Source: Octopus sinensis (lineage: Eukaryota). From it: a DNA stretch of 64,000 bases. A program made the position numbers and the translations under genes. The stretch spans positions 62,001 to 126,000 of the forward strand of contig NW_021836292.1 in assembly GCF_006345805.1 (NCBI RefSeq). The letters are read 5' to 3'. Below the pieces are notes generated by a model. The model did not search any database. It had not been told where the DNA came from and saw only the letters and a program-made list of their open reading frames with translations. Below are positions 26,441-54,140 of the stretch, piece after piece. Every line of letters starts with the position of its first letter. Positions within the stretch are counted from its first letter, which is position 1.

Positions 26441-26533
26441 TGATTGATTGATTGATTGATTGATTCTAGTTTCAGCTTATGAGCTGTGGCCATGCTGGGG
26501 CACCGCCATTTGGTGTTGCTACTTGGTTTCACT

Positions 26534-29527
26534 TCATGGAGGCTTTCTAGCAACTGCTATTTGGTGCATGAGAGAGTTCGATGCAGCTGCCCTCATCTGC
26601 CCCTCCTGCCGTGAAGTTGGTTCATCTGGGACACCTGACAGGAAGAGATCCAGCTTCATTTTAAAGACATCTGTATCCACCCCATGCAGGTCTCTCAGGT
26701 TCTTCGGGAGGATATTGAAGAGCTGTGGGCCTCGGAAGCCCAGGCTATCACAGAATCTTGTCCTACATCTTGATGGCAGGTTTGGAGTCCTAGGCACCAC
26801 GCAGTGGCGCCCAGTTCTGGGCATTTGCGTAACTCTCGATGCCAAAGTTCAGGACACTTCCCTCCAGGATCTTCCAGATGTATATTATGGCATATCTTTC
26901 CCACCTACGCTCCAGAGAATATAATTTTAATCTCTTGAGTCTTTCCCAGTAGCTTACATTCTGCATAGAGGCTATCTTCTTTGTGTAGCTTCGTTGGATC
27001 GCCTCAAGTTCTGTGATCAACTTGACACTGGATGGTGACCATAGCTGAGAGCAATAGTCAAAGTGGCTTAGGACAAGTGTCTTCCAGAGGACCATCATGG
27101 TTTTTTGTTCTCTTGTCCTAAAGGTTCTAAGAATCCATCCAGCCAGCCGTCTACATTTCATTGTCAGTTTAGCAACATGTACATGAAAGGTCGCGTCATC
27201 ACTCATGTGAATACCCAGGTCACGCACTGATTGTGCCTCTGGGATTGCAATCCCTCCGGGTCCAGTGTATTCATTGGGTATTGCATTCAGTTTTGCATGC
27301 TGATAGTATAAAGCTTGAAACTTTCCAGCATTGAACTGCATGCTATTCTTTTCAGCCCACTTGTATATTTCGTCCAGCTCACATTGCAGGTGTTTAGTGT
27401 CCTCAGGGTTCTGTATTGCCTGTGAAACTTTTGTATCATCTGCATAACTTGTGATCGTGGCTCTCTGCGTGGCTGAGGGCATGTCTGAGAGGGCCATTAT
27501 GAACAGTAGTGGTCCCAGAACAGTGCCCTGCGGAACACCGCTCACTATTTGTGTGTTAATGGAGGTGGCCCCATTGGCTACTACCACCTGACTTCTATCC
27601 TTCAGAAAGTCATGAAGCCATTCTCCCAGTTTTCCAACTATGTTGAGATCACGCAGTTTGTGACATATCATTCCATGATCGACTTTATCAAAGGCCTTTG
27701 CAAAGTCGAGATATATGACTTCCACATTTGAGTGGTTGAGCAGCCGTTTCAGCACCCAGTCATAGTGTTGTAGGAGCTGAGTTAAACAGCTTCTCCCTGG
27801 TCGGAAACCAGTTTGGGTGTCGGGCAGCAAGTTATCTCTTCAAGGAAGGTGATCAGCTTCCTTCTGACTATTCGTTCCATGACCTTGCTGATGTGTGAGG
27901 TCAGAGAGATAGGTCTATAGTTCTTGGCTTCCGCTCTGCTACCTCCTTTATGAATGGGGCATATTTTACCTTCCTTCAGTTTTCCTGGAAGTTTGCCAGC
28001 TGCAAGGAAGCTCTGAAAGAGGAACTGCAGTGGTCTTGCTAGGACTCTCTTACATGCTTTTAGGAGGATTGCCGGGAATCCATCGGGGCCAGTAGCTGAG
28101 TCTGTTTTCATTTCATCTATAGCCTTGGTTACATCGTCTTCCTTTATATCGATGTAATCTATCGTCGCCGCCTCTGATTTTATATCTGCAGTGGTAAAAA
28201 AGTCAGTTGGATTGCTGATTTGGAGATGCCCGAGGGGTGGAGTGAAAACACTCTTGAATTGCTCATTCAGTATTTCACTTACCCTCATTGGTTTTCCTGT
28301 AAGTGTGCCATCCTTTTCGAGGAGTGGCCCTATTCTACAGTGCACTGTAGCTGTTTCTTTGGCATACCTGTAGAAAGCCCTGGGGTTAGATTTTATGTTT
28401 TCTATAGCCCAGGCTTCTTTGTCTGCTCTTTCTTTTTCATGGGAGAGTTGCAGACATTTTTCGATTTCCAACAGTTTTATTTTTAGGCGGGACTTTTCAC
28501 TGCTTTCAATCTGTTTGTTTAGGCGATTTGAAAATTTCGTACGCCGTCTCATTAAAATTTTCCTCTCTCTGGGGATTTTGTTCTTGTGTACAGTGCCTTT
28601 CTCTCTGGGACACATTTGTAGCATATGGCTTGCATTACAGACATGAATGTTGAAGTTTCACGTCGATGTCTGGCGAGGAGAGACATTTAGGCCAGTTTTG
28701 TTTGAGGATCTCTTTCTCAATTTGTTTCCAGTTTGCCTTATGGTAGTTCAAGCTGGAAAGATTTTGAGGGTTTCTTGTAGGCTGCATGTCCGTGCTCTCT
28801 TTTGGGCCGTACATGGTCAGCTCTATCATGTTGTGATCCGAGAGTAGTGTCGGTGTCACTTTCACATTATGGATGAGATCCATGTCATTTGTGAAGCAGA
28901 GATCCAGTGTGTTACCTGCCCTGGTTGGTTGGAGTATTACCTGCTCCATGTACAGGGTGTTGATGAGGTTCAGGAGGGACCTCGCCTGTCCTCGTTCACA
29001 TCTTGTCATTCCTGGGAGAGAAAGGCCCTCGGGCCATCTGACATTGGGCAGATTGAAGTCTCCCATAAGAAGTACACTTATGTGTTGTTCTAATGTGGTT
29101 AGAACTTCTTCTATTTTTATAAGGCAGTCTTCAAACTTGCCACATGGCTTGGGGCATCTGGAGGGCGATATGTAGCACACACAACTACATCAAGTTGCCT
29201 AATATGTACAATTAGTGTGTCACACACCGAGTTTGAGTATGACAAGAGGACCTGGGGTGTGAGGTCCTCACGGATGTACATAGCAACACCTCCATGACTC
29301 CTTTCTTTCCTGTCGGTCCGTAGTACAGCATACTGTGGTATGTGTAACTCCGCATCTGCTATGTCCGGTTTCAGGTGCGTTTCTGTAAGTGCTATGCATA
29401 AGGCTTGATTGCATGCAACAAAGTCTCTCAGGAACGGGATCTTTGTCTTGTTACTGAGTGTTTGCAGTCCTCTGATGTTCAGTAGGAGTATCGAGGTGAG
29501 GTGTACGTTGTTGCCGGCGGTGTCCAT
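26534..29527 (-). pseudogene. LINE ORF2 (APE endonuclease + RT), broken by about 4 frameshifts
   Basis: LLNIRGL, LTETHL, GGVAMYI, YRPP, MGDFN, LDL, SDHN, then RT motifs including YADD across ORFs 29117-29635, 28635-29180, 27782-28624, 26790-27830 and 26534-26845. Confidence 0.9.
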
Positions 29528-30385
29528 CCTGTGTCTGTTTGCTGTGGTGGTCTGGTATATAGTGAGTAGTCCCACCTGCGGGCTTGGGTTTGATGAAGCC
29601 AGGTCAGCTGCTGTACAATCTTTTGTGCCATGCACAAAAAAGATTGTTGCTCAGCAGCTGCTCTTTCGACAACATCATGTTGGCTGTTTGTGGCGCGCAC
29701 AACATCTGCGTACCTCCGCTTTGGGGCAGGTGGTGCGTGGTCCATTCCTTTTCTTTGTGTTGATGGTTTGTCCATCTGCCTCGTGTCTCTGTGGCAGGGT
29801 CCCCGATGTGCAAAGCGGCAGCCTGCACCTTCCTTCCATGCCAGCAGGAACCTCTCAGGTAGAACATACACACCCGTGTGCGTGTTTGGTTCCATCCTTT
29901 GCGGTTCCACTTCTATTTCTGGTTGTTTCACTCTTTGGTCCTGCTTGAGCTTTTTCTTTTCCTTTAGCTCTTCCAGTCCTTCTTTTAGTTCTTCTTCCTC
30001 CCTCTACCTCTTCACCGGGTTCTCCGTCTCATGGCCCTTGCTGCCGGTTGGAGAACTTGCACCTGGGTTCACTTCCCGGGCAGGTTTCTCATTCAAAACC
30101 TCCTCCCGGCGTCCACCAGGTGGGGGTGACTTCTTTCATCGTCTCCATCTTGCCATCTTTGCCCCGCTCGTTCTCAAAGATGGCATCAAGTGCGCCAATG
30201 TGACGACGTACAAGCGCATATGAGCGCACGAATTCCTGTCTCTTTCGCTCCATCTGAGCCGCTGTCCTCTTGTAGCCTCTGCTCTTCAGCGCAGCCGCAA
30301 TCACCTCGCTAGGGCTATCTCCGCCGGCGCACTCCCATGCTCGTACGAATAAATCCAGCTCGTCACGTCTCCATGCTCTGGACAT
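29479..30385 (-). pseudogene. LINE ORF1: putative N-terminal Myb/SANT-like domain, acidic coiled segment and CCCH zinc finger (frameshifted)
   Basis: W..DE..LF..AW...IA..L..RGY.RT..Q...K pattern; joining frames gives CMFYLRGSCWHGRKGAGCRFAH; the stop overlaps the ORF2 start by 49 nt. Confidence 0.7.
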
Positions 30386-30519
30386 GCTGGATAATCCGTC
30401 TATCCGTTTATCTATCTAATTATGTTCCGGATTACTAATGTTTCTGCCAGCTCATCTATACACAAACGTGTGTATGCGCGCATGCGCGTTGCGGTTGTAG
30501 GGGTGTGGGGTGGATGTGG

Positions 30520-30561
30520 TATGTATATATATATGTATATATGTGTATGTGCGAGTACATA

Positions 30562-30642
<81 letters not shown>

Positions 30643-30886
30643 TATATACATATATATATTACATATATATATATACATATATATATATACATATATATAT
30701 ACATTATATATACATTATACATTATAATATACATATATATTACATATATATATACATATATATATACATATATATATAATATATATATACATATATATAT
30801 ACATATACATATATATATATACATAGATATACATATATATATATACATATATATATATATACATATATATATATACATATATATAC

Positions 30887-30917
<31 letters not shown>

Positions 30918-30938
30918 CATATATATATATTACATATA

Positions 30939-30969
<31 letters not shown>

Positions 30970-31378
30970 CATATTATACATTATATAAAATACTATATAT
31001 ACATATATACCATATATATACATATATATATATACATATATATATATACCTATATATACATATATATACAATATATATACAATATATATACATATATATA
31101 TATACTTAATATATACATATATATATATATACTTATATATATATATATATATACATATATATAAATACTTTATATATACATATATATATATATACTTATA
31201 TATAATATATACAATATATATATACATATATATATATACAATATATATATATATATATATATATATAGATATATAATACTATATATATATACATATAATA
31301 TATATATTCATATATATATATACATATACATATATATATACATATATATATATATATATTATATATATATTATATATA

Positions 31379-31424
<46 letters not shown>

Positions 31425-31521
31425 TGTATATATATATATATATAGTTTATATATATATATATACTATATATATATATATATATATAATATAAATATGTAT
31501 ATATATATATATATATATGTT

Positions 31522-31553
<32 letters not shown>

Positions 31554-31558
31554 ATATG

Positions 31559-31589
<31 letters not shown>

Positions 31590-31608
31590 ACAGATATATA
31601 TATATGTT

Positions 31609-31671
<63 letters not shown>

Positions 31672-31690
31672 GTATGTATATATATATTTC
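30520..31690. repeat. About 1.2 kb degenerate (TA)n/(TACA) array
   Basis: Directly visible. Confidence 0.95.
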
Positions 31691-32899: not shown

Positions 32900-33529
32900 A
32901 TATACTCTTTTACACGTTTAGCCGCGGCCGTGGTCATGCTGGAGCACCACCATGGTCTTTAGGACTTCCTCAGTCTGGGGTTTCATATCACCACTCCTGT
33001 ATGTGCCTTTGTCCCAGTTGTTGGTACATTTGGTGCATAAAGGAATTTGATTCTGCTAACCTCGTCTGCACTTCATGTCGGGTTATTGGTTCATCCAGTA
33101 TTAGGGAGAGGAGGATATCTAGTTCCTTTTTGAAGACCTCTACTTCCACCTTATGCAGATTTCTTAATTTTGTGACAGGGCATTGAGGAACTGTGGGCCT
33201 TTGAACCCTAGACTACTGCAGTACCTGGTCCAGAATTTAGATGGAGTGGATGGTACATCTGTTACAATAAAATGGCGACCAGTTCTGACATTTGTATAAC
33301 ACTCAATGCCGAAGTTAGATACTCGCCCTTCTAGAATTTTCCATATGTGTATAATTGCATATCTCTCACGCTTTTGTTCCAGGGAGTGAAGTTGTAGTTT
33401 TCTCAGCCTCTCCCTGTAGCTCATCCGCTGCATGGTTTCAATCATTTTAATGTAGTGTTGTCGGACTGCTTCAAGCTCTGCTTTTAGTTTGGCACTATAT
33501 GGTGACCATAAATGGGAGCAGTAGTCCAT
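32900..33529 (-). mobile_element. Older, diverged 3' fragment of the same LINE group
   Basis: DYCSHLWSP..SLEQKRERYAIIHIWKILEG; 3' end ggtggtgctccagcatgaccac..gtaaaagag. Confidence 0.9.
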
Positions 33530-33988
33530 GACGGTCTTTAATTGACCGTTATCGATGACAGATAGGCGTCCAATACGCTCACGATCTTCAAGGCTCAGGT
33601 CTCCACTGTGAAATCTTTTAAACCATTTTCGAGCTGACCACTAAATGATCTTTTCGTCACCAAACGTTTTGATGATATCACTTTGAATATCAGCTTTGAA
33701 TATCGCGCTTTGACAGTTCCATTTCAGCTGATTGTAACAATGTTTTCTTTATTGCCCACAGGGGGCTAAACATAGAGGAACGGTATAAATGAGGGAGGGG
33801 TCGATGGTGCAGATGATTGTAACAATGGGGGAAAATATCCATGTTAATTTATTGATGCAGTCTATGTCTGTATTATCAGACAATTGCAAAAAAGTGTTTA
33901 AAAGTGTTTAAAAAATTCAAAACTTTGCAAAAATCCGCTACAGATTCTTCATGGTCCAAAACGTTGCTTACTTTTTACTCATCCTGAT
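33530..33988 (-). mobile_element. mariner transposon 5' remnant
   Basis: WFKRFHSGDLSLEDRERIGR (mariner N-terminal HTH region); terminus ta-tcaggatgagtaaaaagtaagc resembles a mariner TIR. Confidence 0.65.
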
Positions 33989-34565: not shown

Positions 34566-34960
34566 GGCGGCGAGCGGGCAGAATCGTTAGCACGCCGGGC
34601 GAAATGCTTAGCGGTATTTCGTCAGCCGTTACGTTCTGAGTTCAAATTCCGCCGAGGTCGACTTTGCCTTTCATCTTTTCGGGGTCGATGAATTAAGTAC
34701 CAGTTACTCACTGGGGTCGATGCAATCGACTTAATCCCTTTGTCTGTCCTTGTTTGTCCTCTCTGTGTTTAGCCCCTTGTGGGTAGTAAAGATATAGGTA
34801 TTTCATCTGCCTTTATGTTCTGAGTTCAAATTCCGCCGAGGTCGACTCTGCCTTTCATCCTTTCGGGGTCGATAAATTAAGTACCAGTTACGCACTGGGA
34901 TCAGTCTAATCGACTGTCCCCCTCTCCCAAAATTTCGGGCTTTGTGCTTGGAGTAGAAAA
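34566..34960 (+). mobile_element. SINE family A, dimeric
   Basis: Full monomer 34566-34800 followed directly by a second body 34797-34960. Confidence 0.9.
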
Positions 34961-34974
34961 GTATATATATGTTA

Positions 34975-35660
34975 ACATTATCATATCTACCGTTCAACTC
35001 ATGTCACCCCAGACACACCAGAATGAATATCCCCTTCAGCCTAGCAAAAAGGATCTGTACTATAGTTTCAAATGCAAGCACCAGGGGCACACGACTACAT
35101 AAACTAAAGGATACACTCATCACCAAGAACTATCCACCTTCACTAAGTGACATATGCTTTCAACATGCCCTACAACTCAACATCCATGAACTCAGATATC
35201 CCAAATTAAAGAAGAATTTACAACCAAAAGCTCTATCATACATCTCCACACACAACCCTCTTAACAAAGAAGCCTTCGACACCATCCTTCAAAATATTCC
35301 CCTGCTAAAAAAGGACCATAAAATGAACTTAATCCTCCAAACACACACCATCTTAAAAAGCAAGTGACAGCCCAAACCTATGAAAAGTCTCCTAACACAA
35401 GCCCGAATACGCTCAACAACAACACTGAAGCCGTCAGTAAAGAAAAATACGGAAGACCCAACTGTGAGATATGGGTCAATTTAACTGAGGGATCAGAGTT
35501 CTCCTTCAAACAGGGACAACGTATCACAGTTTAAAGCAGCTTCACATATGCTTCGGAGAACCTGGTATACATACTAACCTGCTCTGGTTGTCAAGAGCAA
35601 TACATAGGCCAAACAAAAAACAGTCTACGTCAAAGCATGGCTCTGAACAGATCCCAGATC
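34975..35660 (+). mobile_element. Penelope-like element fragment (RT thumb + GIY-YIG)
   Basis: YLPFNSCHPRHTRMNIPFSLAKRICTIVS...YP and NLVYILTCSGCQEQYIGQT. Confidence 0.85.
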
Positions 35661-53863: not shown

Positions 53864-54140
53864 AAGAAACGCTAGCACGCCGGGCGAAATGCGTAGCCGT
53901 ATTAGGCGGCGAGCTGGCAGAAACGTTAGCACGACGGGCGAAATGCGTAGCTGTATTTCGTCTGCCGCTACGTTCTGAGTTCAAATTCCGCCGAGGTCGA
54001 CTTTGCCTTTCGTCCTTTCGGGGTCGATTAAATAAGTACCAGTTACGCACGGAGGTCGATATAATCAACTTAATCCGTTTGTCTGTCCTTGTTTGTCCTC
54101 TCTGTGTTTAGCCCCTTGTGGGTAGTAAAGAAATAGGTAT
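53864..54140 (+). mobile_element. SINE family A with a duplicated head segment
   Basis: agaaacgctagcacgccgggcgaaatgcgtagccgtatt precedes a full copy starting at 53905. Confidence 0.9.

Follow-up and report, generated by a model that had tools for sequence, protein, structure and literature searches.

The window, a 64,000-nucleotide stretch of Octopus sinensis contig NW_021836292.1, carries on its minus strand a 5′-truncated copy of a LINE that is assigned to the CR1 clade and designated family A (Table 1). The copy is inserted in a SINE and not in a TA array, and both flanks match a single SINE copy at window 53911-54044. It differs from full-length family-A copies by 19-26 substitutions in about 3980 bp (alignment 30427-26441), and its truncation point lies 42 bases upstream of the ORF1 start codon. 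ORF1 begins with MSRAW at 30385, its stop codon ends at 29479, and the start of ORF2 overlaps its end by 49 bases.

ORF1 of the window copy has net single-base losses at 30148, 30109, 30030, 29882, and 29835, together with an additional loss and gain at 30207/30203 that offset each other. Compared with copy L036, 9 of the 11 single-base losses in the window copy lie within runs of one base, which suggests that they are assembly errors. A preliminary description of this DNA restored the zinc finger by a one-base frame correction; the base missing at 29835 does split the finger, but the whole of ORF1 has five net losses. Elsewhere in the window, positions 32988-33640 (minus strand) hold a 3′ fragment of an older family-A relative with a protein identity of about 60%. 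Positions 34957-35620 (plus strand) contain decayed frames that we take to resemble the end of a Penelope-type element.

Table 1. Features at the family-A locus (window coordinates)
Feature	Position	Strand	Remarks
CR1 LINE family A copy, 5′-truncated, within SINE	26442..30427	-	alignment to full-length copies
5′ UTR, final 42 bases	30386..30427	-	longer copies: >1 kb AT-rich tandem repeats here
ORF1	29479..30385	-	~303 aa where intact; window copy with five net frameshifts
Myb/SANT-like head, residues 1-76, four predicted helices	30158..30385	-	
Single CCCH finger C-x7-C-x8-C-x3-H	29806..29870	-	base missing at 29835 splits motif
C-terminal long helix, conserved, residues 227-273	29572..29712	-	AlphaFold, dN/dS; possible oligomerisation segment
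ORF2, APE endonuclease + reverse transcriptase	26534..29527	-	998 aa in L036; frameshifted in window copy
3′ tail (AATC)n	26442..26465	-	
(TA)n array, ~1.1 kb, host DNA outside element	30520..31680		begins ~90 bases past 5′ junction

Family A in the octopus genome

A DNA search of the octopus's own genome (2.7 Gb) returned 1537 candidates, 40 of which were scored, and 29 loci besides the window were fetched. The scored copies, the window itself aside, are 97-99% identical. An intact ORF1 of 302-304 aa with the C-x7-C-x8-C-x3-H motif reads natively as one frame in 14 of the 29 other copies, which bears out the original call of a LINE ORF1, and the region 30089-30385, whose absence from other copies would have spoken against that call, is present inside the element in all 29. 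Intact ORF1 consists of a Myb/SANT-like head, one C-x7-C-x8-C-x3-H finger, and a C-terminal helix. In L036, ORF1 (301 aa) and ORF2 (998 aa) are both intact, and ORF2 matches the Pfam families RVT_1 (E 1.5e-30) and Exo_endo_phos_2 (E 2.5e-12), giving an N-terminal APE endonuclease and a reverse transcriptase (RT).

Family A has a short tandem-repeat 3′ tail, (AATC)n, and 5′-truncated copies, as in LINEs of the CR1 clade. Its RT matches by eye the clusters O.sinensis_7, _21, _36, _54, and _135_LINE in the supplementary alignment of PMC10294476, and Table S7 of that paper lists all five in the Jockey superfamily, CR1. The trees made here contain no named reference elements, and the CR1 name comes from this by-eye RT comparison. 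Family A is a young, recently expanded octopus LINE.

Full-length copies carry a 5′ UTR (L003:280-1500) whose tandem-repeat unit varies, and the Myb head may bind these repeats of its own element. Between A subfamilies (window 29479-30385), the head shows a synonymous divergence of ~0.85 and the finger one of 0.05-0.15, a drop that suggests mosaic 5′ ends. Contigs of four sequencing runs, guessed to be RNA though none is recorded as such, cover ORF1, and this coverage does not in itself demonstrate expression.

The Myb/SANT-like head

The N-terminal head is well supported as a Myb/SANT-type domain by its predicted fold and by homology to the heads of two further octopus families, B and C; its own Pfam score is weak, at 20.5 bits for Myb_DNA-bind_4 (PF13837, E 6e-4) against a cut-off of 27. 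A homologue search among 1.84 billion representatives gave 31 matches, which served as the AlphaFold alignment. The head is modelled at pLDDT 87, with helices at residues 7-20, 26-35, 42-60, and 63-76 in a predicted helix-turn-helix fold. Most of the 31 homologues have the head, finger, or C-terminal helix in common with family A at ~30-50% identity; 10 were looked up by name, and the five that are named are all from Octopus. Word-based searches returned one and two proteins, both O. vulgaris.

Structural comparison of the head gives sub-threshold scores. Foldseek finds no match to the head model at E 0.001 and ranks PHR1 MYB and the GT-1 trihelix at the top. VIA places TEAD4 first (Z 7.4, rmsd 7.5, 75 aligned), followed by DNAJC2 SANT (Z 7.3, rmsd 4.8, 68) and RAD MYB (Z 7.1, rmsd 2.5, 58), with a trihelix domain also among the matches (Z 6.4). 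The neighbours are mostly Myb, SANT, TEA, and homeodomain proteins, all under VIA's own mark of 8. The ESM Atlas gives no usable match for the whole ORF1 protein, and its head matches, all below 0.9, are leads only. A PDB sequence search returns no Myb match for family-A ORF1.

Families B and C are young CR1 families with heads homologous to that of A. Family B (L232:4077-5303 (-), L234:4091-5287 (-)) has a Myb-headed ORF1 of 409 aa with two fingers and a (ATCAAAGT)n tail, and its RT is 44% identical to that of A. It was initially planned as a non-Myb control and proved to carry a Myb head. Family C (L318:1345-5681 (-)) has an intact ORF1 of 457 aa with a Myb head and, by eye, four CCCH fingers, an ORF2 of 1018 aa, and a (ATCTAAGTTT)n tail; its RT is 72% identical to that of B. 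The heads of A and of B/C are only about 30% identical, and profile comparison links the A head to the B head at 92% (E 6e-7) and to the C head at 96% (E 9e-10). Some B and C heads exceed the Pfam cut-off, at 28.1, 28.8, and up to 42.9 bits. Applied to 30 Myb/SANT loci, the family-A profile scores 25 C-type heads at 34-53 bits and the five Myb/SANT ORFs without LINE context at no more than 10 bits. Between A subfamilies, dN/dS is 0.16-0.36 in the head versus 0.48-0.77 in the linker (seven non-independent pairs).

The Myb/SANT-like reading of the N-terminus thus stands by the AlphaFold bundle and the homology to B and C, against a family-A Pfam score under the cut-off and a Foldseek search that found no match. 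The head belongs to the same domain family as PIF/Harbinger accessory proteins; ORF1 is followed by a LINE ORF2 and a LINE tail with no DDE transposase neighbour, and no close sequence link to PIF/Harbinger proteins appears among the five non-LINE Myb/SANT ORFs compared. SANT-type domains frequently bind proteins rather than DNA.

Zinc fingers, PHD-headed relatives, and enzyme trees

The CCCH finger of family A scores 19.4 bits against the zf-CCCH Pfam cut-off of 20.5. Intact copies show its ligands and spacing natively, as do homologues that are about 30% identical, and its profile matches Muscleblind-type fingers in a PDB sequence search (best E 5e-4). The dN/dS of the finger, 0.29-1.59 from few sites, is uninformative. 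The C-terminal helix is modelled at a pLDDT of about 90 for residues 241-270 and has a dN/dS of 0.05-0.18; by eye, such helices resemble each other between families. Family-A ORF1 has no Pfam match to RRM, CCHC, PHD, or esterase domains at E 10, and its AlphaFold model contains no strand of at least three residues.

Related RTs were collected from 80 metagenome loci, of which L070-L072 are the three closest with CCCH motifs in the upstream frame. All three have tandem CCCH fingers; PHD domains are encoded in L070 (Pfam 29.3 bits), and the cysteine pattern of L071 is PHD-like. A search of the octopus's own genome with the L071 head gave 14 matches and led to family D (L370:2399-6741 (+)), a young CR1 family with an (AAATG)n tail. 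Family-D ORF1 opens with a helical part and a PHD-like finger, which Pfam scores at E 0.01, below its cut-off; three CCCH fingers follow, and a helix closes the protein. The PHD-like head of D is homologous to that of L071 (E 1.5e-5).

Profiles of the family-A finger and C-terminal helix have no significant match in L070-L072 (best E 0.055), and the link between these ORF1s goes via P0147 and family D. The first finger of D is spaced like the A finger, whose profile it matches at 95% (E 3e-8). This match, together with the tandem arrays in PHD-headed relatives, argues that the family-A finger is inherited from such an array and that the head is the exchanged part. The two fingers of family B are alike and resemble the last finger of the ancestral array. 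The earlier proposal of captured ORF1 modules is therefore best confined to the head, which looks newly acquired; the CCCH finger is instead a remnant of the tandem array.

Smaller RT trees (26-31 rows) were made from rows hand-picked from 184 RT-bearing sequences plus C and D, and two trees were built by a quick method. The 26-row RT tree places A and D in one starred clade (95/93) and contains a 17-row clade (98/96) that leaves out B, C, and L070-L072. A 29-row endonuclease tree agrees, grouping A with D (97/93). For the RT and likewise for the endonuclease, all 200 bootstrap trees require the Myb label to change twice. The AU test rejects A+B+C as a single clade (p 0.0005) and A+B together in a 30-row tree (p 0.027), the grouping tested being taken from ORF1 homology and the trees having been inspected before the tests. 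As judged from these comparisons, the enzymes that accompany the homologous Myb heads form two distinct lineages, and PHD-headed relatives occur in both. The conflict between the head and the enzymes, which place A with D and apart from B/C, suggests that the head moved between lineages; with ORF1 known for few tree rows, the simplest reading is that it probably did so within octopods. The consulted parts of PMC4120745 describe ORF1 evolution in these elements as reticulate, and a transfer of the head is in line with this.

Insertion at TA arrays and a proposed role of the head

Insertion sites were compared by one measure in all sets, a TA array at most 60 bases from the last non-tail base. 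Each set comprised the first 30 of 40 scored matches, two of the 30 family-C loci being dropped because their end motif was unmatched, and background positions came from 20 arbitrary 10-kb stretches. A TA array is present at the 3′ end in 23/30 copies of A, 30/30 of B, 22/28 of C, 3/30 of D, and 10/30 RTE-type ends, with a background of 12%; the B, C, and RTE sets were seeded from copies next to TA, and the query for C extended into the tail and three bases of flank. For a pure (TA)5 run the counts are 20/30, 28/30, 21/28, 3/30, and 7/30, with a background of 7%. A differs from D (p 2e-7), family-D junctions show no difference from background (p 0.72), and RTE-type ends are also enriched (p 0.002). 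The TA preference follows the ORF1 head and not the enzyme tree, a correlation that contrasts two Myb lineages with one control CR1 family, D, that has no such head.

At the 5′ junctions of truncated copies, TA occurs in 3/9 copies of A, 11/15 of B, 12/26 of C, and 0/13 of D. By another measure it occurs in 6/10 junctions of A, which is the weakest case at this end. Arrays lie on both sides in 11/15 copies of B, 11/26 of C, and 2/9 of A, which speaks against the idea that they grew out of the tails of inserted copies.

Family-A junctions start with (A)ATA in 26 of 30 cases. The excess of arrays is significant given ATA (p 5e-6) or ATAT (p 0.001). Given an ATATAT start, 17 of 19 junctions have an array versus 79% expected, with no significant excess (p 0.20); nicking or priming that favours a short (AT)n stretch could thus account for the pattern.

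LINE ORF1 proteins are known as RNA chaperones, and the endonuclease is generally held to select the target in APE-type elements. The Myb-headed families A, B, and C lie mostly at TA repeats, unlike their PHD-headed relative D, and a contribution of the Myb head to aiming insertions there would therefore be likely. The preferred reading, given a probability of about 0.5, is that a predicted Myb/SANT-type head, which likely took the place of an ancestral PHD-like one, probably tethers the RNA-protein particle to TA repeats for ORF2 insertion. The CCCH finger and basic linker would bind or coat the element RNA, and the C-terminal helix would oligomerise ORF1p and so multiply the heads. Several Myb heads could then hold the particle on TA-repeat or AT-rich DNA, at which ORF2p would nick and prime, and recombination within octopods would have passed the head between lineages. 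A stronger version, in which ORF1p is a swappable targeting factor whose (TA)n-binding head passed between two distant octopod CR1 lineages and carried microsatellite targeting with it, independently of the endonuclease, is tentative.

A serious competitor, though a somewhat doubtful one, accepts a real Myb-like head that has no aiming role. The TA preference would come from the endonuclease or from pairing of tail and target, with two origins (in A and in B/C) or a loss in D, and the head would act in nuclear import, contact chromatin, or bind the 5′ UTR repeats of its own element. The (A)ATA junction starts, the loss of array enrichment given ATATAT, and the AT-rich tandem array in the family-A 5′ UTR all fit this account, and the TRAS1 endonuclease is said to recognise its repeat target. 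The passages of PMC9710019 consulted describe a Myb protein of Harbinger3_DR that attaches to its own element and is imported together with the transposase, which fits as well. The endonuclease of A, however, groups with that of the non-preferring D and not with those of B/C, which would demand either two origins of the preference or its loss in coincidence with the head type. The (AAATG)n tail of D could equally pair with AT-rich targets, yet only 3 of 30 copies lie at arrays.

The direction of exchange and the nature of the head each admit a further alternative. It is unlikely that the Myb head is ancestral to the whole CR1 subclade, with PHD-like heads gained twice and no transfer between octopus lineages. 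The two changes on the trees fit both directions, the roughly 30% identity of the A and B/C heads is compatible with an old split, and the ORF1s of most RT relatives are missing from the comparison. However, the homology of the D head to L071, which lies on the other branch, suggests that the PHD-like form is the shared old state; moreover, the 80 metagenome loci, with 71 upstream frames, yield no Myb head (best E 0.6), and the five of ten looked-up homologues that could be named are confined to Octopus. That the head is a generic helical bundle and not a Myb/SANT domain would suit the sub-threshold Pfam, Foldseek, VIA, and Atlas scores of family A; the homologous B and C heads above the curated cut-off, and the scores that the A profile gives to C heads, make this very improbable.

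If the preferred reading of a tethering head is true, a DNA-binding head that tracks insertion preference across lineages would give ORF1p a targeting role and would explain the pile-up of abundant LINEs in TA arrays of octopus genomes. The octopus genome is a natural test set, since three of its young families have the head and a close relative lacks it.

Several known systems share parts of this arrangement. In the portions of PMC4120745 consulted, ORF1s of types I-V in Jockey, CR1, and L2 elements are modular and exchanged between lineages, and the PHD-headed forms resemble family D. Family A differs from types I-IV in having no RRM, CCHC, esterase, or PHD domain, so a Myb/SANT-like head with a CCCH finger in a CR1 ORF1 falls outside these types, in agreement with the first impression of an unusual architecture. 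Myb, SANT, and CCCH are absent from the main text of PMC4120745, and a term look-up found no Myb in PMC4120745, PMC11203168, PMC13343379, or PMC13282606. The CR1 clusters of PMC10294476 have an RT stretch like that of family A; its main text names ORF1 once, and no ORF1 domain description was found in the main text and part of the supplements.

According to the parts of PMC13708176 consulted, RLE-type elements such as R2 have zinc-finger and Myb target-binding domains, and their Myb domains aid target recognition, a precedent for head-aided targeting. As in family A, a Myb-type domain in a non-LTR element is tied to target choice. The R2 Myb lies within the RT protein beside a restriction-like nuclease, whereas family A has a separate ORF1 protein, an APE-type enzyme, and a loose preference. 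The PIF/Harbinger Myb/SANT/MADF accessory protein, as far as it is described in the sections of PMC9710019 consulted, belongs to the same domain family and is likewise a second protein beside the enzyme; PIF/Harbinger is a DNA transposon whose accessory protein binds the element's own ends, whereas family A is a LINE. CR1 elements, modular ORF1s, and Myb-aided targeting in R2-type elements (PMC13708176, in part) are already known. Among the openly accessible papers searched, which leaves aside Repbase, Dfam, and most subscription papers, none was found to describe a CR1 element whose ORF1 has a Myb/SANT or CCCH domain. New here are families B-D, the within-genome control, and the tree conflict between head and enzymes.

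Some minor observations concern individual loci. Different CR1 copies adjoin one another at the same TA arrays in L039, L044, and L156, and a family-D copy is inserted inside a family-A copy in L375. The last 66 residues of P0129, a predicted lipin protein, correspond to the family-A ORF1 linker at 61% identity, which reflects either exonisation or a gene-model error.
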